From: Candidatus Omnitrophota bacterium
GTDB lineage: Bacteria; Omnitrophota; Omnitrophia; Omnitrophales; Aquincolibacteriaceae
Direction of reading: 5' to 3'
Length of the DNA: 64,000 nt
Assembly: GCA_035352955.1 (NCBI GenBank)
Contig: DAOPYQ010000008.1
Coordinates: 9,701-73,700 of the forward strand
Part shown: in pieces, positions 3,719 through 63,800 of the stretch
Layout of the letters: each line of letters opens with the position of its first letter
Position numbering within the stretch: the stretch's first letter is position 1
Notes under the pieces: model-generated
What the model saw: the letters and a program-made list of their open reading frames with translations, nothing else
What the model was told of the DNA's origin: nothing
Database searches by the model: none
Made by a program: the position numbers and the translations under genes

Positions 3719-3829
3719 AAATTCTTTCGAATTCCCCCAAGATCCCCGGGAAAAACAAGACCCGTTGGCGAGAAAGCCAACGGGTCCCGGATCTTCATGC
3801 TGCAAATGAATAAAATCTTGAAAAAGGTC

Positions 3830-28204: not shown

Positions 28205-29524
28205 CTAAAGGTGGTGAAGAACGAAGTCTTTACCCTTTTTCTGGAGCTCTTTCTTGAGAACGCTGATGAAGGCCTCGACGACCACGGGATCGAACTGAGA
28301 ACCGGCGCAATTCTGTAATTCATCAAAGGCCACTTCGATCGACCGGCCCTCTCGATAGCAACGGGTTGAAACGATCGCATGAAAACTGTCTACCACACTG
28401 ACGATCCGGGCCTCGATCGGAATCTGATCCCCTTTCAACCCGTGGGGATAACCACTCCCGTCGAATCGTTCGTGGTGAGCCAGGATGATCTCCCGGACCT
28501 TCTTAAAATCAGTCAACGGTTCGAGGATCTTGGCGCCCTTTTCAACGTGCGTTTTCATGATCGCCCATTCGTCCGGGTCCAAACGGCCCGGTTTGCACAG
28601 GATCCCGTCCGGGATCCCGATCTTCCCGACGTCATGGAGGATCAGCGCGGCAGAAATAATATCCTTCGCTCGGCCCACGGTATCCATCCCGAGTTCCCGG
28701 GCCGTCATCAACCCCAACCGTTCGACTTCGGAGACATGCCCGAACGTATACGGCTCCTTGGCGTGAACTTCTTCGGCGAGCGAACGCATGATCTCATAAT
28801 AAGTCCGCTGCTCCTTACGCCGCATCCCTTCGATCTCTTCGAGGCGCCGTTCCAGTTCACGATTCTGTTCAAGGAGGCTTTGATTGTATTCCGAGGTCTT
28901 CACCGCCATCGAACAATCGTGGGCCAACGTCTGGAAAAAAGTGACTTCCTGCTTCGCAAAGCACCGGCCGTTGAGGCGACGGCCGAGCATGAGCACCCCG
29001 ACCAGCGTGTCCTTAAAATAACCGGGAACCGCCAACTCAACCTTCAGGTTTTGCATCGCCTTCTGCACCCCGGCAAGCTGTTCAGATTTGGAGTTTGAGG
29101 CCAAACGGAATTCGGCGCGGGAAAGCATTTTTTTAACGTCGGAAAGGAAAAGGTACTCCCGGGAAATAGCCTGTTTTTTCTTGGGATCGGAAAACCACTG
29201 GATCAGGGCATGATCGGGGTCGAACTTAACGAGATTGGCCGGAAGGCGGCCCGTCCCCTTGGAATTGACGAACTCGTAACGCTTCTTTTTGGAATCCAGG
29301 ATCAGGAGAGAGGTGTGCGTCAGACCGAACTGACGGTCAATGAAGCGGGTAATGAGCTTGAGAAGACGGTCGGGCCGCTTGAGACGGACCATGCTGCGAG
29401 CAACATCCCGCAAAACTTCCTGATAATCAAATTTTCCGTTGTTTGTGAAACCGGTACCGGTCGGCATCGCAGACTTGCCCCCTCCGGGGGCGTTCCTTTC
29501 AGGCCTTCGGATCTCGAAAAGCAC
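28205..29524 (-). CDS. GAF-domain HD-GYP phosphodiesterase (c-di-GMP signalling)
   Basis: N-terminal GAF-like domain. HD motif LILHDVGKIG. HHERFDGSGYPHGLKG (HD-GYP signature). GTG start. Confidence 0.85.
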   Translation of the reverse strand: MLFEIRRPERNAPGGGKSAMPTGTGFTNNGKFDYQEVLRDVARSMVRLKRPDRLLKLITRFIDRQFGLTHTSLLILDSKKKRYEFVNSKGTGRLPANLVKFDPDHALIQWFSDPKKKQAISREYLFLSDVKKMLSRAEFRLASNSKSEQLAGVQKAMQNLKVELAVPGYFKDTLVGVLMLGRRLNGRCFAKQEVTFFQTLAHDCSMAVKTSEYNQSLLEQNRELERRLEEIEGMRRKEQRTYYEIMRSLAEEVHAKEPYTFGHVSEVERLGLMTARELGMDTVGRAKDIISAALILHDVGKIGIPDGILCKPGRLDPDEWAIMKTHVEKGAKILEPLTDFKKVREIILAHHERFDGSGYPHGLKGDQIPIEARIVSVVDSFHAIVSTRCYREGRSIEVAFDELQNCAGSQFDPVVVEAFISVLKKELQKKGKDFVLHHL

Positions 29525-42831: not shown

Positions 42832-45800
42832 TTACGCAGCTCGCGCGACGAGCTTCATCTCGACGAACTGCTGGGCCAGCTTGGCGATCTGGCTGATGAT
42901 GAACCCGTTGGTGCCGTTCGCCCGGACTTCCGGCAAATTCTCAGCGACAAAGTTCTTCAAAAGATCCCCTCGCATTTGCGCATCGGGAATGCTGGCGATC
43001 AGATCCGCCAGGGATTTGAGCGGCATGGCCAGAGCACTTGCAACCGCAAGATCCTCGGCACCGATCTTCTCACCGAACGCGAAATGCGCGCCGTCCGCAA
43101 GTCCGGCCATTTGTGCCGCAGTAAGGTGCAACGTCGTGATCCCGCCCCGGGTCGACGCGCCAAGTCTGTTAAGGACCGCCGCTTCCGTTGTTTCCCCGGC
43201 CCGCATCGGCTCCACCCGAAGGATGCTTTGTTTCTCAAGGGCCTCAAGAACTTTCCCGAGCGATCCAAGCTCTGAGGCTGGCACGACGTCTTTACTCTGG
43301 ATTTTTTTACGGATCTCCGAAATAAGCGCAGGCGATCCGACCGTCACAAGCGATGTCTGACCGTCTTCCGTCATAAACATTTTGAGAAGGTAATAAAGAG
43401 CCGTAGGATTCTGCGACAAATACTCCGTCATAAGGTCCTGACCAATCGCCAAAGTCCCGCGCGGATTCTTGACCGTCTGAACTGAACTGTCGGTAACGGT
43501 CAGCGCCCCCACAGACACGGGCCGGGAAATATACAACGGCTCCTCCCCCGGGATCAAACTATGGAGCACCGAACTATAGGCCGTATCATCCGCCGCGTAG
43601 CCGACCGGAATTCCCACAAGTTCCTGAAGCGTCCTCACGATCGCTTCCTTGCCGCCCAATTCATCAAGCTCCTCGATAAGGCGCGAAGGAATAATATTGA
43701 AATAGTAGTAGCGGATAAGCTCGAGCCGCTCGACCGTCATGAGTTCCCGGATCGTTGTGGCCGGAAGGATCGATGTGCGGACTTCGTTCCGGGACGGCCC
43801 TTTCGCGGGAACGCTACCAACTGTGCCAGAAAAACCGGGCGAAGGCAGGCGGATGGACGCCGGAGAAGAACTCGTAGCGACCTCTTTGATTACCGCTCTG
43901 GTCGCGGCAACCGGAATCGCAACCGTCTGAGGAACCTCCGCTTGAATACCTTCCGTCTGAGAAACTTTCGAACGCCTTTCGGAGCGTTTTCCAAGAAATA
44001 TCTGAAAGTGAGCGTCCGCCTTTTCGAAAAGTTTAACGTTCGCGGGAAGATTGGGAGCGCGCTTCCCTGCAGAGGCTTCCTCGTTTTCCAGGATCCAGTG
44101 CCTCAGGGCCATCAGCAGCTGCTTGTGGAGGGCCGGATCCGTCGCCCGTATCCGGGAAAGCAACGAAGGCGTAATCGACACCCCGTCCAGGGAAGCAATA
44201 AATTTGGTTTCATCTGCGGGTATCGAAAATCCTCTGGAACCCTTCGTGACAGCCTCGCCCGTCAGGGGTTGCATTTCACGCCACGCAACCTCTTCGCTGA
44301 GAACTTCCTCTAAAGGTTTCAGAGCCTGAACTTCCCCGGCTTTTAACAACTTCGCCCGCCTGCTATCCACCGAATGAATCAACCCGAAGCCCAAGGTCAT
44401 AGTGATCAAGACAACGGAAAGCGCCGCCATCAGACTGAGAAACGCGAACGACGCTACGGCAGTCACGATCATTCCGCCCGTCACCCACGTAAGAACTTTA
44501 AAGAACTGCTGCTCTTTCGACAACTGTTGGACCTTATCAAGGATATCCCTAAGGTTCCCTGTCTTTTTATCGTTGGTATTTTGTTCTCCAACCTTTTTAC
44601 CCACAAGATGCGGAAACTCGGCGGCGAGCATACCCCAAACCCGGCTGGCGTCAGCATACTCTTGGGTCCCTCTGGGGTAATGGGCTGCGATCATCTTTAA
44701 AACATACTCCATCGGATGGTCCTGGGAGTAGATTGCATGGCTATTCTGGTCACCGCCCTTTTTATTCGTCTTGGGCGCCGAAAGAGCAGGCGCGTTTTCC
44801 AATTTCTTCGCAGCGGCCGCAGCACGCTCTCTGTCCTGAGCTTTTTCGACCGCAAGCTTATAAGCGCCATCCGCTTGACGGATCTCCGCCTTGATCGCAG
44901 GATCCTTCACCGCCAATTCCTCGGCCAAAGCCTTGGGGTCCCTTATCACTTCGGCAAGAGTCGCGGGCCGAATCTCGCCATATTTATCTTTGTCCGCTTT
45001 GTTCTGAACGGCTCTTACGGAATATCCTCCGGGCGCTGTGTAAACCACTTCAATGTTCACGTCCCGGCCGTCGATCTTTCTGATAACGGTGGCCAGGACA
45101 ACCGGCTGGCTGGGCACTTTAGGAGAGGCCATTGAATCGTCCGGCAAGAAGCTGCCATTTTGCACCTGCCCCGTTTCTTTTTTGAGCTTGGCCGCCGCCT
45201 GAAGCCGCTTAACTTCCAAGTGACCGCTGAACCACTTTTGAACCTCGCTTATCACCCCGGGCATTTCTTCCGGAGTCGGCTCAGGCTGCGTTTTGAAGGT
45301 AAAAAGAGGTTCGGTCGGATTTTTCGGATCGAAATAAACAATAACCCCAAAACTGTTTTTCCCCCTGGTCACAAGCTTGTTCCCTATCAGAACCGGTTCT
45401 TTGGAAACAACCGCCGCGACGGGAGACATAGCATGGCTAGCGGATGCCGCAGGGGTCATCGGAGATATTGCCGCCGGCGCTCCCACCACAACCGTTGGGA
45501 CAGCGCTTTGGGGTTTTTGCCCGACCAGCTTTGTCCGTTTGAAATTCTCCGCCGCAGCTTCAAGATCCTGGGAAGTTTCGACAATCTCAAGCCTGTCATC
45601 ATCCGTCACACCTTTGACAAACCAACGGTCCTTAATCGAAGGATCCTGAGCCGGATCAAAAAGGACAACGTATCTCCGTCCTTGGAACTTAAATATGCCG
45701 AAAAGGATCCGCCCCTTGTAATCTACCGTCCCGTCTATGCCATAGCCATCAACACCTCGGTCATCTTGCCACGCCTCATTCGGGTTGCCGATAACCTGCG

Positions 45801-48800
45801 GCGGCGTTCCTTCAATGATCGCCAGAGGAATCTTATGTGAAATTCTGTAGCGAGCTCCGTCCGAACGCCGCTCGGCACGAAGCACTGAGGCTTCGGGAAT
45901 CCTGCGCTGACGTCCACGGGCTTCGACCCCGGCGATCGCCATCTCGATATCTCCCGTAACGTTCGCGGCCATCTGTCTCCTGGAACGCTCCAGCTGACGC
46001 GTCATCGCAGCATCCGCTTCAGCTGCCGCAAGATCCGGATCTTCCGCCACATTCGCGACAAACTCGCGAGCCCGAAGCATCGCAAGCTGACGCTCGAAAG
46101 CAACGTCCACTTCCTGCGCTGCGGCGGCGGAATCTCCAGCCACGTCCGCGATCCAGAGATCATCCCCAACGCGCCGTTCCTTCCTCGCGGTCGAAACAAT
46201 AAATTTTTCCGCAGCAGCGCTCAGAGGCTGCTCCTTACCGCCCACTGTCATAACCCAGGGGGATTCCCCGCGATCAAATGCGCCATAATCAAAAAGCACG
46301 ACCGTCGATCCGTTCGTTCCAGGCAGGGATGCAAAAACGATCCGGTTCCCGGAATCTCTCTGGACCGGTCCGGAAACCACCACGGTCGTACCGCTAAGAG
46401 CAATCACCGCTCCAGTCGGAGATTGGTACCGGATCACCGCTCCTTCGTCCCGCTTCTCCGCACGCAACCGCACATCACCCCGGGGAGCACGAACGGCTTT
46501 CTGGAAAAGAGCCGGTGCGAGAGCTTGGGATGCTCCGAGGCTGAGAAGTTCGTGAAAAGCCAGTCGATCGCCCGTCGTCTTAACGCCTGTGATCAGAGTA
46601 GAGGCGCCTTCCGACCCGATCGCAACAGCCAGCGCCGCCCATCCGGGATTAAGCACGGATCCGTTTTGAACGTGAAGGCCCTGAATCCTGTTAATCGCCT
46701 GATCCAGCACCGCAGTATAAAATGCCGCCTGTTCCTTATAAACCGGGGTCCCGGCCTCAGGATCCTCAAACCGGTTGGTCTCGACATCTTTTCGTGCCAC
46801 CCGGAGCAAATTCAATGCCGCAGAACGAAGCTGTTCCGCAGCAAGTATCGTATCCTTCTCGAGCGCCATCAAATGTTCCACGAGGATCTCCACATGGCCG
46901 GAAAATGGGTGTTCCACTTCCCTATGGATGATCAAAAGACCGATATCCCGCCTTATCCCGTTGATGTCCGCGATCGCCTGCGCACGGCTCACCGCTTCCG
47001 CCGTACTCCGGAGTTCTTTGCGATGTTGTGAACTGTTGCTGGCGAGCGCTATTTGCAAAATACCCGCAGGGCCGGAAAGAACTGGGAGATGTCCGGCCAC
47101 GGATACCGTCTGAGCCTGCGGGTGGAACGACTTCTCCTCTTTCTTCGCACCTTTACCGGCTTGAAGATCAACCGATTCCTTCCCTTCGTCAATAGGAAGA
47201 GTGACCGATGTCGAACCACGACGTTCCGCGCGGATGATCCAGCCACCTTTCCCGTCCATGATCTGTTCCAGCTGATAGGTCAAAAAGTTAAAACCTTTAT
47301 CATCCTCACGGTTTCCCTCCGTATTTTCATCCGAAGGATCTTTGATCCCTTCGATGCGTTTCGTATACCAGGGCGCGAAACCATTCAAGTCACCATCATT
47401 GGTAACTCTCCCTTTCAGGGCTTCCTCAACGTAACGGTTAATGAAAAATTTCATCTGCTGGGTACTTCCGGTAGCGGAGATCATCTCAAATCCTGCTTCA
47501 TCCAGCGAAACGCCGTAAGCATCCCTAAGCTCCCGCAAAAGCCCTTGAGCCCACGCCCGTTTCGCCTTGTCCGTCGTATTCCTCGAAACATTCCGCAGCT
47601 CCGTCACAACGATCGCACGCGCCGCGACATCCAAATTCTCAAGCTGATTTTTTTCGATATATTGGGACTCGACCGCCCGCACAAGCTCGTTGGTTTCCGA
47701 GTCCCCGCTCGAAGCAAGCGCTTTCACGAGAATATCGCAACTATCCGCATAATGGGACTGCGCCAGCACATTTTTTGCGGCCGCCGGGAACGCCCCGAGA
47801 TTCAGGTTCGAGATCCTCTTCAGATCGGCCAGGGCTTCGGCCGGCTCGGGCTTCTTGTCACTGCGCGTCCAGGCTGTCCGTTCGAAATAACCAAGCCGGG
47901 TCCCCTTTCGGATCTCGTCTTCAAGAGAACTGAAAATACCGGCCTTTGCCTTCGCGGCCCCCCCCAGAAACGCTGCCGCCCAAATCCCTTTCAAAGAAAA
48001 CTCACGCCGTGTCATATCACCGCTCCGGATCTCCGCGCGATGCGAGGTTTCGCCCCCGGCACTCCGGGTCTTTTTCCCTGGACCCTGTAGAGAGGATTTT
48101 CCGGAACGGTCGGCCTCCTTCCGTTTTTCTTCCAAGATATGCCGGGCGTGAGAATAAACGGCAAACACAAAGATCGCCACACCGGCCACTGCAGCCGCGG
48201 GGAACAGCCATTGTCCGGCGTTCGTAATGGAAGATGACGCGTCCGCAAGGACCGGAAGTCCTTCAGTCCATTCGGAAGAACGACGCTCTTGGCGAGAAAC
48301 CTTGTTTGTCGCCGGTGCTTCCGTAGCCTGGGCCGAAATCCCGAACCCCCGCGCGGAAACCACCTCGGCGGTAAAAAACGCCGCAACCCCCAACATCAGT
48401 GCGAGCGTTATGGCATTCGAGGCACGCCGCTCCGCCCTCGGACCAACGTGCGTCTCTCCGTATTTGGGCTCCAGATTCACGACCAGCATTCTGCGGGCCT
48501 CGGTCACATCGTAAAAAATACCGTTCTCCCCGAGTCCGAGGATTCTGGAAAATTTCCTGGCCGGTTCGCTCTGCCCCGCGATCCGCTTGATCGCGGCCAT
48601 ATCATGAGCGGCCAATCCCTGAAGGATCGCGTTGTAAAGGGCTTCATAATTCGAATCTCCCGCAACGCGGTCGGCGGCAGTTGAAAAATTTACGGTTTCC
48701 ACCTCTCCGGGACCGAACGTTTTCTGTCCCGTAAGGTCGAAAACCTTTGCCACCGCGGATTTTTCAGAAAGTTTTGAGAGCATGTAAAGAAGACGGATCA

Positions 48801-51800
48801 GGCTCCGGGGATCGCGGGATTTGATCTTGCGGAAATTAAAGATCGCATTCTTGAAGTTCACGGTTCTCATAAAATCCACGAAGGACTCGAAATCGCCCTG
48901 TGCACTGATGTTTTGAAGTTCTTTAAAAACTTCCGACAACTCGATTTCACGCTGGTTGGCAACCTCCGCCGCCCGTTTTTGTTCGAGAAGGCGATCTTGC
49001 TTGTCCCCCAGATCTTTTTCCAGGCGCTGTTTTTCCCGCTGTTTCTCGGGGATCCCCGCCCGTCCGCCGTTCTCTCTCAGAGAGTTCACTTGAGCAGTAA
49101 CACTGTGGATCGCCTGAACATCCGCCGCGATCTCTTCCTGGAGCCGGTTATGATCCGCCGTCAGGGCCTGGACCTTTTCCTGTGCCTGCTGAACCTTTTT
49201 TTCCGCGACTTCCAGCAGCCCCTTCTTTTCGTAAGGTTCCCAAGCTCGCGCGATCTCAAATGCCTGTTTTCCTTCCCCGAGAAATCCTTCGAAAAGCCGC
49301 ACGGCCGGCCAGCTGCCTTCGATGTGGGCGAAAGAACTGAATTTTGAGAGATCCTGGAGAAAAGCAAAATTTCTGATATGTGCATCTGTGGCGACGCTCG
49401 CGAACCGCGACAGAACATACGTGGCCGCCTGCAGCGCGGCGATCTTGAAATACCGGTTGCGTTCGCTGAGCTTCCGGTTCCCGAATTCAAAAACCGGCAC
49501 GCCGTCCACGGTCTTGATCGCGATATCAAGCCCGAAATCCTTCAGAGCCATCCGGATCTCTTCAAAAGGTCGCTGCGTCAGTGTGATGATCGCCCCAAAG
49601 GAAAAGGCATCGCTCCCAAAGATCTCCTCGATCGGTTCTTTGCTGAACGGGGCAACCCCCGAGGGAGCGGTAAAATTGATACGATGAATATCGGGTTTGC
49701 CCGCGGTCTCACGGGCCTTCAACACGGCCAGGCTTACGAAGAAAAGGAGCCGCACGAGGGTCTCGGCATTTAAGGACTGCAGAAAGAAAATACTGTAATC
49801 GAGCGTGCTGGCTTCTTCGGGATTATTGAAGAAATCGTAGAATTTCTGATACTCCGCCGGATACTCCCGCTGCAGCGCATCGATCGCTTGCTTGGCCTCA
49901 TCAAAGGTCGCCTTGGAAATATGGGACTGCCCGTTAGAAGCGAACTTGCGGATCCGGTGCCAAAAGAAACCCTGGTTGAACCGGTTCAGGAAATCGTCTT
50001 CCTGAAAGACCCTCAGGAAAAATTCGAGTTTCTCCCGGGACATCGCCTCACCCTCGCGCGTCGCCAGTACATCGAGGGAATTAAGCAGTGCCAACGTCCG
50101 GAGATACTGTCTTTCCTTGCCGAAAGGCGCCGGATAGTTCCCGTAAAAAAGATTCTGGGTGCTGCGTTCGCCAAATTCGATCGTGCCGAGATCCACATGG
50201 AACCGGATGAGCCAGAGCACTTCTTCCACTTCTTCGGACGAATATCCCATCGTCTGCAAAATTGCGGCTTCCGCGATAAGCCCCGCCCCGATATCCTCAT
50301 GGTTGCCGGCGCCGAGCCCGATCCCGATGTCATGAAAAAATACCGTCAGATAAAAAAGGTTCCGCCGTTTGGCGACCTTCGCCGCGTCTCCGTCGGTCCC
50401 GTAGCGGATGATCTCCTGAAACGCCTTGCGGTAAAGATCGAACTGCGCCTGGTTGAATTTGATCCCCTTCTTGAGCTTGTTAAACGTATCGAGGTCCCCT
50501 TTTTCGATCAGATCGAGGAATTCGATCAGTTCGAGCGTGTGCTGGCTCACCGTCTTGTTGGGATATTTCTTGAAAATATCCCGGTCTTTCCGTGAATCCG
50601 TTCCGCTCTCAACGCGCGGGAACCATTCGAACATGGTTTTGGTCTTTAAAAGTTCTTCCAGACGGGCCCGGATACTGAGTCCCTGCGGTTTCGTCGGGGC
50701 CAACGCCTCGTCAAGCAACGGCGGCAGACGGACGCCCTTAAGATCGGCGTGGTCCTTGTTCACGAGCGGAACCTCGACCCAATCGCCCCACCGCGGATGC
50801 TTCGCCCCGGACTTCGCCTTCGCCGGACCGGCCACGGCGTTCTTGTCCTGAAGGTGGGCCTGGACCTCCTGCCACCGTTCGCGCATCGAATCGATCGAGC
50901 GCCGCAACCATGTAGGCGAACCTTCTCCGAAGTGCAACGTGGAAAAATTCCTCTGGAGCGTCACAAGGCTGTAGATGAGGTCCCGCTCTTCATCTTCTTT
51001 GAAAATGTCGAGCGTTTGCAAAAGCTGCGGGATGATGAGCCAGGAATCGGTCGCCTCGTCGTTGAGGAAGATCCTGGCATAATGCTGGAGAAATGCCGTA
51101 AGCCAGAGGATCTTCTTGAGCGGTTGGGTCTTCTTGTCCGTGTAATCGTTACTCTCGACGATATGGTAGGCCTTATCCAGTTTGTCAACGGCGTCAGCAT
51201 CCAGAGGAGCTTCCTGCCCTCTTCTTTGGTCAAAGAACGCCTTCAGTCCGCCTTCGGAGGTCCGCCGGTGCGCTTCGAGCAGACTCAGGATGTCGTAAGT
51301 GGTCCTCAGCTGATCGTAACGCGAAGAGGTGATCACCAGCGCTTCGGGAATATAGACCAGTTCGCGGATCAAGGTAACGTCGTTCAAGGCCTTCCAGAAT
51401 TCGTCGAGATTCGCACCCGGACTCTCCAGGATCCCCTTAAAAGTCGCCTTTTTGTCAGCCGGAATATTCTGGTGGAACAGGTTGACCGCATCGGTCAGCT
51501 TCCCCCTCAGGTTCCGTTTCCGTTCGGGATCGGTCGTCGAAAATTCGATGCCTTTGAAATAAGCGTGTGTGGCGTTCCGGTAATCGCCGAGCTCCCGGTA
51601 ATGGTCCCCGAGTTTCTCGAAAAGGTCCAGAAACTCTTTTCCGTTGATCTCGGGGATCTGCGCTTTTCCGAAAAGTTTCGCGACATAAGACTTCACCACA
51701 TGCATCGCGCCTTCCGGATCCAAATAGTTTTTCCGGTATTCTCCGAGCAAATTCCGGATCGCCGGAGAAAATCCGTCCCGTTTTTCCATCGCCGGAAGGA

Positions 51801-54800
51801 ACCGATCCAGAACGTTCTGGAACGGGGAAACCGCCTGAACGCCCGGGTTCTCAACATCCTGGACGATCAGATAATCCAGCACATTCATCAGCAGGAAAAC
51901 CTGTTCCGTCAGGAACATTTCTTCGGTCGTGGCTCCCGCGGCAACTTCTCTCGAGGCGAGAAAAGCCTGGATCGATTCCTGGTAAAGAAGCGCCTCAACG
52001 AAAAGGACTGCGGCTTCCGTCGTCTTCTCGTCAAGTCCCTCTGTCCCAAAGACCGACTCGGACAACCGGACACGCTTGCCGGCGGGATCGTAATCTCCCA
52101 TGACCCAGAGGGTCCTGCCTCCGTTGCTGAATTCGCTCACCATCGGAATGTTCCGCGCAAACTCGATAGCGCGGACCGCTCCGGCCGCAGAATAAGCTTC
52201 TTTGACCAAACCGTTCTGGGAAACAAGGCGGGAGAATGCCGTCTCGAAGATCTTCCGTTTCTTTGCTTTTTCATCGTCATCGCCGGAAAAACCCACTTGC
52301 GCAAGTTCTTGTTCGAGTGTCCCGCCCGTCGATATCTCGCCGATCTTCTGGGATTGATAATCCTGAGAAGGTGAAAGGACGCCGTCAAGCGCCCACGGCA
52401 GGCTCACGGGCAAAGGCTTCGCAACCCCGGCGACGCTTCTCCGTTCCGCACGGCTGCTGTCATCGAAAGTCCCCGCGATATCACTCCGGGCGCCCAGATC
52501 GGCATCCAGGATGTCTGAGACCGTACCGTCCGTCCCGACCAGAACCGTTCCGTCAAAAGCGACCGGCCGGCGATCCGACATTTTCCGCGTTCCGTGCCGT
52601 TTCGCGATCCTCGCGCCAAAATCGGCATTAACATCCGCCGCCGGCACGACAACTTCCCCGGTCACCCGGGTTGTCTTTCCGGCTGCCAAAAGAGATTTCC
52701 GCGAAGCGATCCTTTTTTCCACATTCCTGAGATCGCGCCGGAGATCCATAAGATTAAAAGCCTGCACCGAACTCGGAAGATTGTCCCCCAAAAGTTTCAT
52801 CTTGGCCGCGATCCTGGCCTCAAGCGCCGCACGTTTGTCTTCCATCTGCGCAAGCTCCGCATCCAAAGCGCCGGCGCCCGCCGCAGAGGCTGCAACCTCG
52901 GCCCTCCGCTCGGCACGACGGTCGAGAAAAGTTGCCCATGGAATGTCATACAAGGGTTTTACTTTCAGGGTCACGGTGCCTTCGTATTTTCCGGAAACGG
53001 GCTGTTTAACAGGATCGACCCGGACAACGTTGATCTCAACAGAAACGTCCTCGTATTGTCCTGCGCCAACACCGCGTTTCCCCACCGAAATGATTTTCGT
53101 TTCGCCTTCCTCAAGCGTCAGATTGTTGTTCTCTTTTTTATCCTGTTGCTCTCCGAGGATCCGGATCTGGGCCTTCGCAGGAGTTCCCGGAAAAGTTTCC
53201 ACGAGAAAAGCCGAAAAACCATTCCCAATGCCTTCCGAATGCTGCGGCCTTTGCGCATTAAGCGTCACTTCAAAAGGTGCAACTCTACGGGGAGCGTAAT
53301 GTTGCACATATTCCCACAACAGGGAATCATAGTTGCCTTTCAGAAGAGAAACATCCCAACCTTTGACCCCCTTCAAAAGACCTTCGATATGTCGAAGAAC
53401 ACTCAGAGTGAACCCCTCGTCCTTATGCCGAAGAATACTCTGCGTAAAACCAACATCCCTATCCGGGGATTCCTCCTGCCGGATCGCGGCGTCGATCAGG
53501 GGAGTCAGCAACGGTTTTAGAAAAGGCAGTTCGTAGGGCATATACGTATTGATGGCGTGCTTGGCGTTTTTCCAGGTCGCAAACACCGCTTCGGTCTCAG
53601 AAACGCGCTGCCATTTCCATCGGCGAAGCACTTCCTGCACAGTCTCCTCTTCGCCCAACGCAAGACTGCTCAGCATGTCGCGCATGAGTCGCAGGTCATA
53701 CGCCGTCAGGGCCCAATTTCCGGCAAGAAGGATGTCGGGAGAACTGTAAGCCATGACCGGAAATGCTTGGCCCCCCATCGCCTTGACGAGCCCAAGGATG
53801 CGGTCCCCGAGAGCATCGTATCCATGGACCACAAGGATCTCGTTGGGAGCCAGCTGCAAAACTTCACCGTTCGTGCCATTCTCAAGACGGGTCGTGATCT
53901 TGTGCCCTTGAAGCGCACGGGACACATCTTCCACCGTTTGATAATCCAGATCCAGGATATTGGCGTTAATCCCCCGCTCACGAAGTTTTGCGAGAATGAG
54001 ATTGCCCAGTTCCGGCTTTCCGGAAGCACGCGGCCCGCCGATCAGGATCACACTACCCCGCTCTTCCGGAAGCTCGTCAATAGCTTCTTCGACGAGCGCG
54101 TCAAGTTTTTGTTGCATGGCCCGATCCGCTCGTCGGATCAGCTCAAGCCTCTTTTCCGTAGAGTCGACCTCGTTAAGCTCCGCCAAAGTCTCCGGCCGCC
54201 AACGCTTCGCTCCGGTATCCATAACATAAGAAGGATGCGCTTCATCAAAAGGAGCCGCAAGGTCCGGATCCGCCGCAAGCATCGCGTCCACGATCCGGCT
54301 GATGGCGATCTGATAGGCCGCCTCGCGAAGCGTGATCTTTTGAGACTCCGAAACCCGCGAAATATCATAGAATGCGCTCACCACCTTATCTTCCATAAGG
54401 CCATTCCCGGCAACCTCAGGCCAAAGCTCCCCGATATTGTTCTGCCTCCATTCTAAAGAGGAAAAAGCCACCCCGCCGTCGTTGGTGGCCACATCGGGAA
54501 GAATGATGGCGCCTTTGTCGAGAAGGATCTGTTCGGATCCGTCATTTTCAAGAGGGCCGTTCGCGCCCTCGGAAATGATCTTGGCACGAATAAGCTTGGC
54601 GATATCTTTGTTAACGGTTTTTTCCTTCGCCGCAAGCGCCAGGACCGTGACGTCGCTTGCCCAGAAATCTTCTATAGATTCCACGCGAGCGTCCTCAGGA
54701 TGCGCTTTCGCATACGTCAGGATTGTGTTCTTTTTCGACGTCCCGTCCGCGTTCCTCTCGGCCAAATGCTTGTCGAGCGCGTTGAGATCGAGTCCCGTAT

Positions 54801-57800
54801 CCTTCACGGCGGCCACAGCGACGGACTGGCCATCCACGAATTCCTTGATGGCCATGACGTGCGCTCCGTTATCATAAAAGCTTCGAGCCGCATAACTGCC
54901 GACATTCCCGTAAGCTTCCACGGCGATTCTCTGACCCGCAACACCGGCGCCGATCCCGAGACGTTCCCCGTAGATCTTCAGCGCTTCTCGCGTCACATAG
55001 TAGAGGCCCAGACCCGTCGCCGGAGTGCGCCCCGCGGCGCCGCCCTTGCCTTCTGGTTTTGCGGTCACGGTGGCCACAGGAGAGCCTTCACTCCTGTCGA
55101 TATGCCGCTGGCCATAATAATGTTTCATATAGTATTCGAGATAAGGGAGGGCAGTCTCATCCTCCTCCGCAAGCGCAGCGCGGAATGCATCGTTATCGAA
55201 AAGCTCCGGATTCTTGATCTTCAGGAACTCATCAGCAAACCATCCCATTTCTCGGGAAGTCGTTCCGACGTCGCCGGCCGGCACATCCGAAAGAGGCCCG
55301 AAGGCGTTAGGATCCTGCTTTAAACATTCCGCCACATACCCGCGCATCAACCGCGCCAATTCCTTGACGGAGAGTTCTTTGGGATTGATCGCCACGCCGC
55401 CTTTACCGCCACCATAGGGAAGCCCCGCGATCGCATTTTTGACGCTCATTTCCGTCGCAAGGGCTTTGATCATAGATTCGTTCACCCCAAGGGCGAAGCG
55501 GATACCGCCTTTGTAAGGCCCTCGGTAGGGCGCATGACCGATGCGGTACCCATCAATGTATTGCGTCTCTCCGCCTTCATCCAGAGTCAGGGGGATCCTG
55601 ACACGAATGACTTTCGTGAACTGTAACAACTTCTCAAGGATCCTTGGATCAAGCCGGATCTGCTCGGCCACTTTTCGGATCTGCGCCTGCGCATTCCTCA
55701 GGAAACCTTCCCCCTTCTCTCCAGCTTCCGTCTTGAGCTTCACACCCTCCGGATCTGTCTCCATATAACGAATCTTCTTCCACCGCTCAGCAATCTTCGC
55801 AGTAGTTTCCGACGCTCCAGCTCCCGCATCCTTCCGCAATTCCGAACGACGGACAGTCGCATCAAGCGGCCCAGCGGCAGCCGAACGCGCCACAAAATCA
55901 GCGGCAGTGATCGTCAGAGTCTTCAGATTGCAATTCTTGGCAAGCATGATCTCGACGCGAGTCAAAGGCAGTGCGGGATCGATCGCATCAAGAGGGATAT
56001 CGAACCCCCGGGTCGTTGCGGTCACCGGATACATGTAAGTGCCAAGGACCCTTTCACGGGAACCTTTCAGCCCATAAACAAGAACCTGAATGTTTGCCGC
56101 CTGCCCCTCCTGAGAAAGTTCTGGCGCCAGAGTTGTCAAACGAAGCGATGCCGCTTCCGAAGCGGGTTTATTGGGAGTCAGAGCCCACAGAGCGCTCCCG
56201 GCCTTTTTGGCATCGTTGCGCTGGATCAAGACCGTTCCGTTCGTCACAATCACCGAAACAGCCTCCAGAGAGGTCCACCCCGCCGTAAAATCAAACGGAT
56301 CCACCGGCGTCAGCGCTACCCGGTGAAAGCGTAAAGGCTCCGTCAGCATAGCGGAATCCGTAAAAGAAATGGTGTTCGTCTGCCCCGGCACGATCGTCAT
56401 TTCGTCGCTCGTTACCGGCGTCCGTTCCCCTGTCAGTGCATTTGATCCCAAGACGAACGCAACCGCTTTAAAAGACGCGGCATTGGTCCCTGAAACAACA
56501 AATCCGATCGTTCCGGTCCCGCTCACCCGACCCGGGTCGTAGCTCGTGGTACGAACCACCAAGTCTTCCGCAAAAGAGAGAAAAGCCGACATAAAAAGAG
56601 CCGTAAACGCAATCCCCCTCGCGGCGTTCGAGCGCGGCGTAAGATTGCTCAGCCGCTTCTCGGCGCGAGACGCTTTTTGCTCCAGTAACGCTAACACGTC
56701 CGCGTAGAGAGCCGGCTGTCGATCCTTAAGAAAGATCTGCTCCTTGCCATGACTGCGCGAGATTCGAAGGCCTTCCAATCCCACGATGGCCTCGAAGTAA
56801 ATGTCATGGTAAGGCATACGATAAACCGTGTAGTGATGAGCCAAAGTGGGAAGAGATTGGATCGCTACATCTCCGGACCGAAGATAGATCGCGTACTCCT
56901 GTAGCGTCAGATCCATACCAAGTTTCAACCTCGGCACGATTTCTTTTAGCCTTATAGCATTCAACGCCGGGGTCACAGCCGCGACGACCCGCGCAAAAAC
57001 ACCGCTAAAGCCGGATTTGCCGGAAGCGGGCGTTTCTTTTAATGCCGGAAGCCGGACAGGCTTGTGTTGGAGCGAAACCGACAGCGCCGCCGCGTCAATG
57101 GCGCCCGCAATCGTGTTCCCGCGCCTGGCGATCGACGTACCGATCACGCGATTCACCGCCAAGGCCTCTTCCAAGGTCAGAACGGCATAAAACTTCTCTG
57201 CAACCTTCGGCGCCTCCGTCAAATTCGAGGCCCGGAACACCCTGGCGACGTTACGCACTTCGTCTGCCGTAAAGGTCTCGGCTGAACCCTTTCGCGCAAG
57301 CACTCCGTTAAAAATATCCGCGAGCGACTGATACTGGCTCGCGGTCAACGCATCCTGCTCCGTCGCACCCGTCTCACGCAATTCCGCGCGCCAGGCGCTA
57401 ACAAGAGCGCTCACGAACATATCGCGATGCCAGGACTGGCCCAGCACCCATTCGACCTCTTGTAATTCTTCAAAACTCATCATCCCCGCCCAGGCGAGGA
57501 AATCAAACCGAAGGTTCGCGCCTTCCTCTTCAGTCTTGCCCGGAAGAAGTTTCTTGAGCAATTCACTCTGGAGACCGTAGCCTGCGCGGCCAAAGATCTC
57601 GTTGGCGACAAAAAGACCGGCCCCTTTTTCAAAATCGATCCCGACCTGGGGATCATAATTAGAATCGCCCTTCTTGAACCAGGGCGGACTCGTCACGCCA
57701 CCGCGGGGCTCGCGGATCGGCTGATCCGCGCGGTTGATATCGACGCCGCTCCCAATACGAGCCTTTTCATCTCGAGCCGAGGCGGACGCATTCTTCCTGT

Positions 57801-60800
57801 CATCATTGTCGTTACGCTGGGGCATGATGGCGAACACGATCACAAGCGCTCCGGCGGCCCGGTAGGCCGAAATCAGCTTTCGGTCAAGAAGCAATCTTTG
57901 TTCCTCTGTCACACTCGTTCCCTTCGCCGATCCCAAATATGCGATTGCGAAAAGACCGCGCGCCGCCGTGCCATAGTCCGAGATCGTCTTAATGGAAGGA
58001 CATTCGATATCGTTCGGAAGAATAAGGCAGGAGAACTTCGCCCCCGGTTTCATGAAGACGCCGCGCATGAACTCGAGCGCGTCATCCATCACCATCGGCG
58101 TCGTGTCCCCCGCCGCGAGCGCTTTTTGATAAGCCTTTTGCGTTTTCAGATAATTTTCATAATTTTTCTTAAGCGCTGTCTGCTCGCCTTCAGGAAGCGC
58201 TTCAAAGATCTTCCTCATGTTCTCCGTGGTTTCGTCAGCCTTCATGGCGATGGCGAGCGCCTTGCCGAGATGACGGTCGAGAACGTTCCCAAAATCATCT
58301 CCCTCTTCGCGTTCCGCGAAAGGATCCACGTCCCTCTTGTAATCAAAAACCTTGTCTTGGTTCTCCGGACCGATCCCCTTCAGTTCGATCCCCAGCTGGT
58401 TGTGAAGCTTGGCAATAATCCCTTCAGTCGTATTCCCATCGCCGTTGATCATCTTGACGTAGCGCTCGGCCTTCTCCCGTCTGGAATCACGCAGCATTTT
58501 CTGAAGCGCGGGATCCCGAAGCTGAGCGATTGAATGGACCAGGACATAGATGGTTTTAGCTCCGGGGTAATTGATCTCTTTGCCCTCCAACGGCGTTCCC
58601 TTGGAATTAACCTGGATCTCGAAACCAACCGTAGCTTTGATGCCAAACTTCTTCGCGGCCGCGAGGAACCGCTCCGCTCCGGCCAACGTGTAATGATCGA
58701 TAAGGCCTACCGTCTGAAGCCCGGCGCGCCAGGCGCGGTAAACGATCTCTTCGGGATAGAAGGGGCTGTAAGAATCCTTGCCGTGAACGTGGTTGTTGCT
58801 TTCAAGTGAAAGCGGCGCACGGCGGATCTTGCCCGCTTTCGCAAGCGCGACGATCTTGTCAACCGCGGCTTCGCGGGTAGCCTGGCTACGGCTCTTCAGA
58901 TCGTTTTCGAGGAAAAGAAGTTCATTTTCGGAGGCGATGTCGTTCCCCATTTGATTGAGCGTGGGGTGGTCACTGCCGCGCAGGTCCGCGGCAAGTTTTT
59001 CATAAATGCGCGGGGGAATGAACTGCAGCACATACGGCAGATAAAGCTGGCGGAAGAGCGCGAGCGCGGCATTCGGGTTCTCTGCCGCTGCCTTGGCAAG
59101 GATCTCCGTCTTAAAATATTCCATTGCGCCTTCAAAATCGCGGTTGCGGTCGTTCTCGACTTTTCCGATATTGCTGTAAAAACTGAGCAGTTTCTCGAAC
59201 CGTTTCGACCGGTATTCCGGATGCGTCGTATCGAACGCGAGCCTGAGGAGCGCCATCGTCCGGCGTAATTCAAAAGGGTTTGTCTTAAGGTCGATGGTTT
59301 CCTGGGCAATCCCGCTTTTTTCGATATCAAACCGGGCGACTTCGTCACCGGGGCGGGCCCCATAAAGAACGACCTGTATCGTTTCCTCGCCGGCGCGGGA
59401 GACTTTCTCGATCACGGCGCGCACAGCCAGTTTGTCGTCCGCCAGCTTCACCGGGTCGCGAAAGCTTACGGAATACGACTTGCTTCCCCACCCCATGCTT
59501 TTTACATCGTGGACCGTGTCTGGCCTGAGACTATCCGTCAACTGATCAAAATAATCGTAGGTAAGGCCGCGCTCCTGCATGATCTCCGGCACCGACGCAG
59601 TCGAGGCTTCAAGCGCCTCCACAGCCTTTTGATATTCTCCCTTCTGCACCAGATTCCGGAATTTCTCTTCACTGCGAACTTCCGCGCGGAAATCTCTGGC
59701 TGAAGCTCTTGGAAGGGCTAATCCCCTGTCAGAGGCCTGAGGCACCAACAGCAAAGTACCGTCCTTCGGTTCGACCACAAAGATCGTGCGGGAAGATGTT
59801 TGATAAGGCCGGAACCCGCCGGGCCCGGACGTTGTGAACATTTCAAGCCGGTTCTTCCGGACACGCGCGGAAACAAAAGTAAGCGGAGCCGACGGATAAC
59901 CGGTCAGCATCGCCAAAGACACTTCTTTTGAACCGGCCAAACGCTCGAGCAATTTGACCCCCTGCTCAAAAGTCAGCCGCTTATTTTCGGACGGAGGATT
60001 CACGACCCGTGTCGCGACAATCTCCCGCAATTCCGCACGAGAGCCCAATATGTTCGCAAGCGCGGCTTTCGGGCTCTCCCCGCGCAGTAACTCGGCAGCG
60101 ATCGCAGAGACGACAAACGGGCCCTCGGCGATCAAGTCTTCACCGAAAAGACCCCAGAAAGCATTGGGAGACAATTCCCTGATCGTTTGTTTATGACCAT
60201 CCGAAATGACGGCGATGGAAGGAAAAGGCCGCGTCGGTGGTTGAGACGGATCCACAAGCAATGACATCTGCAGACTTACCACAAAATCCTGAACCCGTTG
60301 GGCCGCCATAGCCACCAGCGCCCCTTGGGACGCCTCCAGCATCACTGCCACAAACCCTGTGAATTCCCCTTTTTTCTCGAGGATGTCAAGAACCTGGCCC
60401 ATCGTAACCACGTCGGCTTCCATGATTTGACCGGCTTTTGCATTCGGCTTCCGGGATTTCCCTTCCCTCCGTTCGGCCCTTTCACTCTCGCCCCATGCCG
60501 CGGCTCGCTCCTCGGGAGATTGAGCCTGGAAACGCCGCCACTCTTCGCGCTCCGCTTCGGGACCGGTCAATTGCGATCCGTCTTGCAAGGAACGGGATGC
60601 GGTTTTCCGCCCAAAGTCTTCAACATACCGGACGCCTGCCGCCTGAAGCAACTGCGCGACTTCAATTCCGACCGGCCCTGCCAGTTCCACATCGGGACCC
60701 ATCAGTTGATCGAGGCGCACCGCATCGAAAAACGCCCCGCCCCGGAGCTCGGCACGGACAGTTTGGGCCTTCTCCTGATGTCCGCGGATCGCGGCGTCGA

Positions 60801-63800
60801 TCAACTGGATACCGCCGCCCTGATCAATAGCCTTGCCCAACTCTTCGGGAGCGGGTAAGAAGAAATACTTTCTTTCCGCAAGAAGTTCTTCGTAGGCTTG
60901 TTTGGCAACCTTGAAACGATCATCCCCGGGCTTTATCACGCCAGGGACCTTCGCCCGGACACTCTCATAATAAAGCCCGCGAACGACCATCAGCTCGTTC
61001 TCTAACATCTGCTCTATCATGGACTTCACGGCGGTTCCCGCCGAAACATCGAGGCTTGAACGCTTCTCTTTCCGGGATTCCTCGGATCTCATGTCTCTTT
61101 CCGGAGCAGATACCCTCGCCGTCGCCGATACGTTTTCTGCCGGAAGAAGATACGGCAAGAGCCTGGGAGTAAAAATCAATGCGCCGCCGAGGGCTGCCCC
61201 TACGGCAAAAGTGATCCATCCCAAATAAGCCGCGCCCGTAAGAATGGCCACGGCTCCGCCCGCGTTCGGCGCGATAAGCGCAACAAGATAAAGGCCCGAA
61301 AGCCTGAAAGGCTTCGCAATCCCCGCCAACGATTGGGCATTGACCTCGGGGAAGAAAAACTTCATGGCTTTCCAAATCGGGACAAGCACTGCAGCAAGCG
61401 CCGCCAAAAAACCGATGTGCGCAATCGCCGCGATCAATTCCCAAACGCCGGAAAGCTTGTCCGCCACGACTTGTCCCACGGAGCGGTCCGCCGCCTTTTC
61501 AACAGACCCCGGTACGGTGATGCTTTCCCGCTTCTCGGCGCGGAATGCCGCAAACAGCTTGGCGCTCTTCTCCTCCGCGGTAAGTTTGTTCGCTTTTTTG
61601 TCACTGGAAGGGTCTTCAGTGACCCGGCCATCCTCATAAACGGTAACTCTTTTCTTCTCGCTCGACACCACAAGTTTCCCCGGTTTTGAGGTATCGATCC
61701 GGAACGCGCCGTAAATCGTAGGCTTGTTAACCGGCGTCACATCAATGACAGAAATATCGCTGCCAACGTCCGCAAAGGACAAAGCAGCGTTCTCGCCATA
61801 CGGTTTGCACATTTGCCGGAACTGCTCAATAAATTTTGTCACAAATGCGGGCGTCGGGACCCGGACAAGCAGCGGACGAACTTCCGGACCCTGTTCCCGG
61901 AATGCCGCGACGTCGGCGCTCTTCCACTCCATTTCCCCCGTTTCCACTTTCGCGGATGTAACGCGGATGATCAACTTCTGAGCACCGGCCTTCGACCGGA
62001 CATCGAAAATGGTAAAACCCGGAAAAATACCATGACCGTAATAGGCATCACTAAACTTTCTTGAGAAATCGGCACGCATTTCTTCGAATTTCTTTTCTTG
62101 CGTTTTCTCAAGCCAATACGAATACGCCCTCATATGCAGCGCGTCAAAAAATTGGCCGTAGTTGCGGTGTCCGGTCAGCATCGTCTTGAGCTTCAGATAG
62201 AATGCCCCGGTCGGACCTTCCTTGTCGTAAACGGACCAAAGGGCCGAGAGGATCTCATCTGGATAGAGCTCAGCCAGGCCCATCCGGCGGGTCATATCCG
62301 CCATGATCGCTTGCTCATCCCGCAATTCCGCGCGCCAGGCCCCATACGGGGATCCGTCATAACCGGTCTGGCGGCTATTGTCATCTGCATCAGACGCATT
62401 GGACGCTTCCTCGGCCGCCCTTGCCGCCTCGGCAGCGAGCTGGTTATCAAAAGACTGCAGAGCTTCGCTCGACCGGGGATCCCCGATCTTCCGCAATTCA
62501 GCCGCGATCATTTTTCTGAACGCAGGGGAATTTTTTTGATTCTTCAGCCTTGCGACTAATTCAGGCACACTCTCAGCCCCGCGAAATTCCACCAGCGCAG
62601 GAACCGCGGCCATACGGACATACTCGAAAGAAGAATCCAGCCCCTCCGCAAGCTCGGCCCACGCGCCCAAGTCTTTCAATAAGTCAGCGGTGGCCTCGCA
62701 AACACGGTAGTCCGGATACTTCAAATTGTTCCGGAGCCGGGGGATCACAGATTCCGGTGATCGTTTAAATTCAGGCAGCAAGTCCTGCAACAAGTGGGTC
62801 ACCGCGATTCGCACGCGGCCGGCATCATCATTTAAGGCCGCCGTCAGTTCAGGAATGGCCCGGCTTCCGTCACGCTCGCGAAGTGCCCAAAATGCCGCAG
62901 CCCGAAGATCTTCATAGGGAGATTTTTTTTGTCCGGCAAGAATATCCCACTGCTTTTTCTGAAAAAGTGCGGGCACCGCGATTTCCCGAACCCGTTCCTC
63001 ATCATTGACCAGTGCCAGGCTGAGCCCATGCAAATCATTGAGTTCTTTGATGCCCTCTACCGCAGCTCTCCGGGCTTGCAGGCTATCATCGGCTAAAGCG
63101 CCTTCCAGGAGAGGCAGGGCTTTGGCTCCCTCCGTTTTAACAAGTATCCGGAGGATCTTCTCACGGATCATTTCCGCTTTCAGGCCCATTTTGGATGGCT
63201 TCCAGATCTTCATCAGTCGGGGTCCCACGGAACTTCCGATCTCGATCAATCGGGCGGCAGCCTCGCTCGAATATTCCCAATAACCGAGTCTGCGGATATT
63301 CCATTGAACAGGATCTACGATCCTCAATGCCAAATAAAAAATCCACCTCATTGTTTTGACAAAAACGGTGATGACCGATGTGGCGACAAGCGCCAGAATG
63401 CCTGCCATCACGGCAAGGGTGAAGATTCCGCTAAAACCCCAGACCCCGAAAAACGTCACCGCCGTCATACTGCCAATAAAAATCTTGCCGAGCGAACGAT
63501 CCCACATATATTGATCCCAAAGCTTAACCAAAACAGGCGCTTCCTTCCGCTTCTCGGCGCGAGGAAAGAAAAAACCTTTTTCCGGAGCAGCAGGTTTGAC
63601 GTCGGCCAGAACCCAAACTCGCAAATCAGGCTTTGTGAAAGAGATCGCGTAAAGAACGACCGCCGACGGATCCGCTTTTGCCCGGGCAAGAGCTGTTTCG
63701 GATTGGATCGGCCCCCCGTCTTTGACGCTTAAAATGAATTCTTCGGGCGTCCGATGGTTCAGTGAAGTTTGAATGGCCTGAAGGCCGGTCGCATAACGCC

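Follow-up and report, generated by a model that had tools for sequence, protein, structure and literature searches.

Giant proteins of the Omnitrophota, among them the "Archaeovorins" and a "multi-enzyme metabolic" class, have been described in two preprints (West-Roberts et al. 2023, bioRxiv 10.1101/2023.11.21.568195; Nielsen and Lui 2026, bioRxiv 10.64898/2026.06.07.730766). HEAT repeats, PGI, phosphoglucomutase (PGM), histidine kinases, and HD-domain regulators are reported there in such proteins. West-Roberts et al. proposed from C39 and S8 domains that the proteins are cleaved, and stated that the cleavage points are unknown. The lack of cleavage points is also said to have blocked domain-wise structure prediction, and the predicted topologies are called implausible by the authors themselves. 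Here we analyzed a gene of this kind in a 64,000-nucleotide (nt) stretch of DNA (the window) from a Candidatus Omnitrophota bacterium (GenBank assembly GCA_035352955.1, contig DAOPYQ010000008.1, positions 9,701 to 73,700). Like the Archaeovorin type, it has an Omnitrophota host, an open reading frame (ORF) of more than 7,000 amino acids (aa), scattered transmembrane segments, HEAT repeats (Pfam, E 3e-20), and embedded housekeeping-type enzymes. Unlike the proteins of 30 to 147 thousand aa at the center of those surveys, it is only 7.8 thousand aa long; SecA-DEAD, C39, and S8 domains gave no Pfam match in ten tiles of the ORF or in the N-terminal 665 aa. The gene belongs to the known Omnitrophota giant kind. 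What is new is a grammar of short separator peptides, R-[AS]-E-x-R, and a frame consisting of an N-terminal domain, a unit that joins a glutamate/Leu/Phe/Val dehydrogenase (GDH) to a P-loop domain, and a C-terminal domain. Term searches of the main texts of the two preprints turned up no recurrent separator, and a literature search returned nothing relevant on the motif strings or on polyproteins in Omnitrophota.

The other close comparison is with the polyproteins of picornaviruses and flaviviruses. Like these, the giant ORF holds many self-contained proteins with a short motif at every boundary, and some of its presumed products bear signal peptides. At flaviviral NS3 sites a basic residue precedes the cut and a small residue follows it, as at the presumed cut here. 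Unlike the viral systems, this is a chromosomal bacterial gene among housekeeping genes, its cargo consists of metabolic enzymes, our search for a protease was negative, and cleavage is a proposal.

The giant ORF and its separator motif

The giant ORF is a single uninterrupted frame on the minus strand at positions 42832-63924 of the window, and all features of the gene given below lie on that strand. It encodes 7,030 aa from its first GTG, and the frame stays open up to the window edge at base 64000. The complete product, P0123, of 7,823 aa, was returned by an exhaustive HMMER search; residues are numbered here by the window translation (full-protein position minus 793). The window translation is identical to P0123 at 7,029 of 7,030 residues. 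The sole mismatch, at aa 4865 (49330-49332), is Phe in the window and Leu in P0123, so the two come from different records. A neighboring-gene look-up placed the window on GCA_964411105.1, contig CAYPJP010000007.1, and the 3' end of the giant gene also in two other assemblies; this end thus stands beside the same tyrS neighbor in three records, of which two are NCBI assemblies and one is from ENA. Five related genomes (L004 to L008) share the architecture in open frames that measure 3,629 to 6,991 aa, of which only that of L006 (4,906 aa) is complete. An earlier note on this DNA had described several unrelated catalytic units in one very long chain, and all of the sequence strings that it quoted lie in this one ORF, so that part of its description was correct. 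The same note had named joining of several genes by assembly error as a way in which it could be wrong. With the same 7,823-aa ORF in a second record and comparable giant ORFs in related genomes, an assembly join is excluded for practical purposes. A repetitive adhesin, which the note had also discounted, is ruled out by the absence of internal repeats; the ORF has about 10 hydrophobic segments.

The giant ORF contains the motif R[AS]E[RLVKI]R 18 times, versus 0.17 times in residue shuffles, and the looser form R.E.R 24 times, versus 2.4 expected. In the window, 24 separators extend over positions 43777-63561. L004 to L008 were obtained with a P-loop alignment scan of GTDB genomes (61-65% identity), and a metagenome scan with the same alignment added nothing beyond a second copy of L008 and a single distant locus; all of the named relatives are Candidatus Omnitrophota (L004, L008, and L009 are so titled). 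The giant open frames of L004 to L008 contain 16 to 27 motif copies each, with the consensus R-S-E-[VAIL]-R and unconserved flanks. An unbiased scan of gapped pentamers ranked R[SA]E.R first in all six proteins (15 to 23 observed versus 0.1 to 0.3 expected). The motif is also enriched in P0001, P0135, and P0136/7, and its frequency per residue is about 10-fold lower in the 33 other candidate genes of the window (ORFs hand-picked as likely genes).

The motif differs by lineage at all sites together: it is RAE[RLK]R here and RSE[VAI]R in the relatives. Such lineage-wide drift fits coevolution with a single recognition factor that acts in trans. In 67% of cases the motif is followed by a small or acidic residue (G, S, A, E, T, or D); Pro follows it in 1 of 123.

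Cassette boundaries and signal peptides

The separators divide the giant ORF into about 25 cassettes with a median length of 153 aa, and the recognizable domains lie between them. In the window protein the PHP module is bounded by motifs at aa 1413 and 2179, the GDH plus P-loop unit by those at 2693 and 3670, and the HD module by those at 3825 and 5163. No motif was found inside a Pfam-matched domain in six proteins. PGI is complete between motifs (profile positions 1-486 of 486, E 1e-228) at 1051 and 1623 in L005 and at 1442 and 2029 in L008, and in L007 an ACP (aa 1064-1131) fills the 84-residue interval between motifs at 1053 and 1137. PGM, UDP-glucose pyrophosphorylase, and HEAT/TPR arrays likewise fall between consecutive motifs in the relatives, according to Pfam. 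Among other giant proteins, P0001 has a PAS-histidine kinase-receiver set and P0002 a glycogen phosphorylase.

Boundaries of homology follow the same sites. In BLAST comparisons with L004 to L008 and P0001, the only shared parts were the N-terminal ~580 aa, the GDH plus P-loop unit, and the C-terminal ~200-320 aa. In six relatives the GDH plus P-loop unit shares 70-75% identity with that of the window protein, and in every relative this block starts at a motif or within about 10 residues of one. Nine giant proteins gave 67 pairwise high-scoring segment pairs; the start lies within 15 aa of a motif in 43 of them, and the end no more than 15 aa before one in 34; of 35 motifs lying inside longer segment pairs, 23 align with a motif in the partner. 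Homologous cassettes hold different ranks in different proteins. The earlier note had seen a common nucleotide- or phosphoester-handling theme in the PHP, P-loop, and HD modules and had raised the possibility of one module order in related giant genes. Neither is conserved: only the P-loop recurs, as GDH plus P-loop, and the PHP and HD modules are replaced in relatives by PGI, PGM, UDP-glucose pyrophosphorylase, ACP, and two-component modules. The HD module is shared only with proteins that are more distant; the closest relatives lack it in the stretches fetched from them.

A phosphoglucomutase cassette of ~800-1,000 aa lies one or two cassettes after GDH plus P-loop in L004, L005, and L006 and is absent from the window protein. 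L007 and L008 also have PGM domains downstream of GDH, but there the cassette runs into the end of the locus or is matched only in part.

Signal peptides deep inside the giant ORFs of relatives are also placed with respect to the motif: four of four signal peptides with an LAGC lipobox lie 16 to 42 aa after one (L004 aa 142-163 and 307-333, L007 aa 1575-1622, L008 aa 2589-2620). The signal in L008 is also of the twin-arginine (Tat) type, RSEVR being followed directly by GEETRREFIKK...LAGC. In the window protein, the separator RAEIR at aa 5296-5300 (48025-48039) is followed by the Tat-like signal SGDMTRREFSLKGIWAAAFLGGAAKAKAG (aa 5301-5329, 47938-48024); the Met at aa 5304 has GGAG 7 nt upstream. 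Signal-peptide-like segments also follow RAEKR at aa 2420 and RAERR at aa 5163. Overall, the start of a hydrophobic segment falls no more than 30 aa from a motif in 26% of cases, versus 12% at random. Thus, we have high confidence in an architecture of motif-bounded cassettes, with motifs at domain and homology boundaries and signal peptides after some of them.

Cleavage and its alternatives

The best explanation of the region from the PHP to the HD module is that it is part of a polyprotein-like giant gene and not one multi-enzyme machine, each cassette being self-contained. It comprises six cassettes: PHP, one without a recognizable domain, one with a signal-peptide start, GDH plus P-loop, a short one that is coiled-coil-like by eye, and a GlnD-like HD cassette of ~1,300 aa. 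On balance, and with no great assurance, we favor the view that the giant gene encodes a polyprotein cut at R-[AS]-E-x-R; both the proteolysis and the protease are what we infer from sequence patterns. A dedicated Arg-specific endopeptidase would cut the precursor after the second Arg of the motif. Cleavage would free the cytoplasmic enzymes and give the exported cassettes a free N-terminal signal peptide. Cassettes would be gained, lost, and reshuffled as units between lineages, and a frame of N-terminal anchor domain, GDH plus P-loop, and C-terminal domain would be kept throughout. We advance more tentatively, as a proposition just short of an even call, that a whole Omnitrophota clade encodes true chromosomal polyproteins, in which dozens of ordinary proteins are made as one precursor and cleaved at a lineage-specific R-[A/S]-E-x-R. 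The cargo would include GDH, PGI, PGM, ACP, phosphoesterases, histidine kinases, lipoproteins, and Tat substrates; cassettes would pass between genomes as units, and other lineages may use different separator peptides. Such polyproteins would be a bacterial form of gene organization that is an alternative to the operon.

Several results weigh against cleavage. No protease domain was found in the ten Pfam tiles, the conserved ends, or the window genes beside the ORF. The conserved N-terminal domain is a candidate hydrolase whose pattern may be that of a Tiki/TraB/ChaN-like metallohydrolase, but Pfam and PDB searches with it gave no match. Internal signal-anchor segments can insert without a free N terminus, so the argument from signal peptides, strong as it is, does not settle the matter. 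CGC or CGT (CGY) encodes the first Arg in 88% of 120 motifs, versus 43% of other Arg codons before TCN or GCN (background 43-45%), a bias that a purely peptide-level site does not predict and that possibly reflects a translational, RNA-level, or DNA-level component. Finally, the distant relatives L009/P0002 and L011 have the GDH plus P-loop unit without the motif. Motif-less proteins (P0141, P0133, P0129, and P0002 of L009) contain other recurrent short peptides between their modules, namely PTPDLVP[AP]G, G[KA]SLG, ASSA, and GLRQDAQQGVDLSVAGGDSSAAAA (twice), which may be lineage-specific separators.

The only protease-like gene among the other genes of the window encodes an Rce1-like CPBP intramembrane protease (15111-16022, minus strand). 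It lies 27 kb from the giant gene, and we found nothing that links the two.

The chain could instead remain intact as a membrane-anchored multi-enzyme scaffold in which the motif is an inter-domain linker, serving as a hinge, a docking site for partners (e.g., HEAT/TPR), or a modification site. This was the view of the earlier note and is the working assumption of the published surveys; we consider it unlikely. Large uncleaved multi-enzyme fusions such as AROM and CAD exist, and the single uninterrupted ORF, the roughly 10 hydrophobic segments, the HEAT repeats, and the negative search for a protease in the ORF, its ends, and the window all agree with a scaffold. Published topology surveys treat such proteins as single chains (bioRxiv 10.64898/2026.06.07.730766). 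However, the PHP and GDH cassettes have just one hydrophobic segment between them (aa 2438-2456), and in an intact chain it would put these presumably cytoplasmic enzymes on opposite sides of the membrane. Lipoprotein and Tat signals immediately after a motif make little sense thousands of residues into a protein. A linker has no obvious need of an invariant R..E.R core between unconserved flanks, nor need it drift in concert at all sites of a genome. With motif-bounded cassettes and a signal-like start between PHP and GDH, a set of units threaded into one membrane-embedded chain, as the earlier note had it, is probably not the working state.

A lower probability still attaches to the motif being the in-frame footprint of a nucleic-acid or translation signal, whether for RNA processing, ribosomal "stop-go" or re-initiation, or recombination. 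The CGY preference of the first Arg favors such a signal, as does the Ser at position 2, which is encoded almost always by TCN and almost never by AGY; so, too, does the shuffling of cassettes exactly at the motif, although shuffling at boundaries is equally expected if only linker junctions are tolerated. Apart from the first Arg, third codon positions vary like the background, the last Arg has background codon usage, and the fourth residue varies, none of which suits a nucleotide-level signal. An ATG or GTG with a Shine-Dalgarno sequence follows within 12 codons of only 10.6% of the motifs, and stop codons are not found there; we know of no such mechanism in bacteria. The narrower idea that the motif is a Shine-Dalgarno or internal-start footprint (GAG-GTG or AGG mimicry) is rejected on the varying codons and this 10.6%. 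Least probable by far is an artefact, in which genes were merged by mis-assembly or gene calling or the ORF is a decaying read-through fusion. A gene of this size is out of the ordinary, and assemblies of short-read metagenomes are sometimes chimeric, but the 21-kb open frame inside the window, the 7,823-aa product with a single difference per 7,030 aa in another record, the shared tyrS junction in three records, and the like architecture of five related genomes are all contrary to it. In addition, the 70-75% identity of the GDH cassette in six related giant proteins indicates purifying selection. The artefact reading is already essentially refuted.

The published surveys ask whether giant Omnitrophota proteins act whole or cut, and a defined separator makes that question experimentally direct. 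The separator rule also allows giant ORFs to be split into cassettes for annotation and folding, and reading them as cassettes resolves the topology paradox, in which enzymes that presumably act in the cytoplasm are predicted to be extracellular. Confirmed cleavage would mean that bacteria use polyproteins to make housekeeping enzymes, which would affect gene calling, metabolic reconstruction (enzymes hidden in "hypothetical giant proteins"), and protease discovery. The modules themselves are of more modest value: a new PHP family member, an uncharacterized GDH-linked P-loop family whose Walker A never has Ser or Thr, and a GlnD-like HD family found mostly in large multi-module proteins.

Cassettes from PHP to HD and the ends of the gene

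The PHP cassette (aa 1418-2178, 57391-59673) is bordered upstream by the separator RAEVR (aa 1413-1417, 59674-59688) and downstream by RAELR (aa 2179-2183, 57376-57390). It begins with an N-terminal region of ~250 aa without a match, after which aa 1690-2130 (57535-58857) match stand-alone ~440-aa PHP proteins end to end. A PHP-like set of metal ligands had been noted before, and the assignment held. PF02811 matches aa 1712-1805 above its gathering cut-off (34.1 versus 26.4 bits, E 4.4e-8), in an alignment that spans only the N-terminal half of the profile, and local NCBIfam matches are to 3',5'-nucleoside bisphosphate phosphatase, RNase RNM, and DnaE PHP domains. A homologue search returned 194 proteins (E down to 7e-30, 28-31% identity over 75-78% of the query), nearly all stand-alone "PHP domain-containing" proteins of ~440 aa from Atribacteria, Sphaerochaeta, Coatesbacteria, and others. 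HVHGKDSY begins at aa 1712, and LIDHY, GFEI, and LVHS are also present. In a 21-sequence alignment, the window protein retains all candidate ligands in invariant columns, H1712, H1714, D1743, H1744, E1769, H1797, H1885, D2062, and N2064. By inferred mapping onto the canonical ligands, the final His is replaced by Asn (N2064) across the whole ~440-aa family. The window copy has lost several near-invariant family residues (D to Y, D to G, and a deletion in YLGDV..S.TGDK, its one deletion) and has inserts.

An AlphaFold2 model of the PHP module had a mean predicted local distance difference test (pLDDT) score of 73, with a core above 80, and Foldseek matched it to 3e0f, 2yb1, and 9etk/7ug9 (E 4e-11 to 4e-7, target TM-score 0.69-0.75; for 3e0f, 2yb1, and 9etk, E 4e-11 to 6e-9 and 0.69-0.72). 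The module is thus predicted to have a TrpH/YciV-type phosphoesterase fold with its candidate metal ligands kept. It resembles TrpH/YciV PHP proteins (RNase AM, PDB 9etk and 7ug9; the 3',5'-nucleotide bisphosphate phosphatase Cv1693, PDB 2yb1) in predicted fold and in having the candidate HxH, DH, E, H, H, and D ligands. It differs from them in being only ~15% identical, in belonging to a separate ~440-aa family with larger inserts, and in the last motif, which is D-x-N in its whole family and not D-x-H.

Two cassettes separate PHP from GDH. The first (aa 2184-2419, 56668-57375) has no recognizable domain. The second (aa 2425-2692, 55849-56652) follows the separator RAEKR (aa 2420-2424, 56653-56667) and has a signal-peptide-like start, LSNLTPRSNAARGIAFTALFMSAFLSFA followed by ED, 13 aa past the separator; the remainder is beta-rich by eye, not by computation.

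The GDH plus P-loop cassette (aa 2698-3669, 52918-55833) is the only cassette of the region that is kept in all relatives. It lies between RSELR (aa 2693-2697, 55834-55848), at which, or within about 10 aa of which, the block of 70-75% identity begins, and RAERR (aa 3670-3674, 52903-52917). The glutamate/Leu/Phe/Val dehydrogenase domains occupy aa 2771-3217 (54274-55614; E 5e-40 and 4e-43), and the atypical P-loop domain occupies aa 3270-3545 (53290-54117). Its Walker A, GPRASGKP (aa 3297-3304, 54013-54036), does not have the form GxxxxGK[S/T]. Among nine homologues, GK is followed by Pro in eight and by Leu in one, never by Ser or Thr; G, GK, D..RLMR, R.W...R, W.NA, and YE.P.L are invariant in the nine, and in all nine proteins the domain is fused to the C terminus of GDH. 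With Pro or Leu after GK in every homologue, the degenerate Walker A is, judged from this alignment, an ancestral and selected feature of an uncharacterized family, not recent decay.

The earlier note had called the domain kinase-like: the Walker A with its Pro was read correctly, but the kinase label is overstated. The Pfam tiles gave no P-loop match with E ≤ 0.1, none of the Pfam and NCBIfam models reached its cut-off for this domain, and the subthreshold matches to AAA_16, APS_kinase, nSTAND3, and Zeta_toxin are confined to the Walker A region. NCBIfam PRK09270 scored 21 bits against a cut-off of 250, and the best single-domain PDB profile match was 1rz3 (E 7e-4); PDB sequence searches with the three modules gave marginal matches only. 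AlphaFold2 with three sequences gave a pLDDT of 39, too low to use. A weak match over strand, Walker A, and helix (E 1e-4 to 1) likens the domain to small P-loop kinases (APS kinase, uridine/cytidine kinase, PRK09270-type; PDB 1rz3), and the D..R..R downstream of the Walker A presumably corresponds to their lid-like motif. Unlike those kinases, it has no Ser or Thr after GK, is always fused to GDH, and falls below every threshold. It most likely binds nucleotide as a regulatory or noncanonical site and would not be a standard kinase.

The distant locus L011 (1-15863) contains a giant ORF of at least 5,287 aa with GDH plus P-loop, a Walker A reading GGPTASGKL, and no R-[SA]-E-x-R. By eye it also has CoaD-like, RibB-like, nucleotidyltransferase, transglutaminase-like, and methyltransferase stretches.

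A short cassette (aa 3675-3824, 52453-52902) without a recognizable domain, coiled-coil-like by eye, precedes the separator RAERR (aa 3825-3829, 52438-52452) and the HD cassette (aa 3830-5162, 48439-52437). Within the latter, aa 4006-4898 are colinear with P0124 (1,102 aa, E 1e-80) and likewise with P0125, and the HD domain lies at aa 4455-4625 (50050-50562), with FFHDIGIG at aa 4529-4536 and HDIG at 50323-50334. What had been described as a textbook HDIG domain is a real HD domain but not a textbook one. PF01966 scored 16.6 bits, below its cut-off of 22 (E 0.01), and TIGR00277 (HDIG) was absent from the NCBIfam matches at E ≤ 1. A word-indexed homologue search gave no match, and exhaustive HMMER returned 37 relatives (E down to 7e-53), a separate family that lies mostly inside other large multi-module proteins. 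In about 30 homologues the ligands H4462, H4531-D4532, H4542, and H4576 are at least 80% conserved; D4618 is, on inspection, common to most of those aligned but below the 80% line. NCBIfam GlnD models match locally (aa 4516-4581, E 3e-9, 35 bits versus a cut-off of 959). The pattern HD-x-G...H...G-A...H is like that of the HD domain of GlnD (PII uridylyltransferase/uridylyl-removing enzyme). Unlike GlnD, the protein has no nucleotidyltransferase or ACT domain detected in the Pfam tiles, and only ~65 residues match. The cassette ends at RAERR (aa 5163-5167, 48424-48438), with a hydrophobic segment 2 aa further on.

The conserved N-terminal module (full-protein aa 1-680) lies outside the window and consists of a signal or anchor segment followed by a domain of ~550 aa with invariant H, E-G, and G-G-x-H; the domain is also present in L006 (3248-5000), P0001, P0135, P0141, and P0133. 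It gave no Pfam match at E ≤ 10 and no PDB profile match. The C-terminal cassette (aa 6717-7030, 42835-43776), after the last separator, shows weak conservation, with relatives 24-30% identical to the window protein. Its profile was too divergent, and no further search was made with it. Every protein ends in A-x-[A/S]-A (ARAA, LASA, ATAA, AKSA), an ending reminiscent of a recognition tail at the C terminus.

The other genes of the window are housekeeping genes: TyrRS, IleRS, DnaE, GuaA, GuaB, Lgt, menaquinone/futalosine genes, an ABC-2 transporter, and histidine kinases. A stand-alone HD_5/HD protein is encoded at 28205-29524 on the minus strand (E 6e-37) and is unrelated to the HD cassette of the giant gene.

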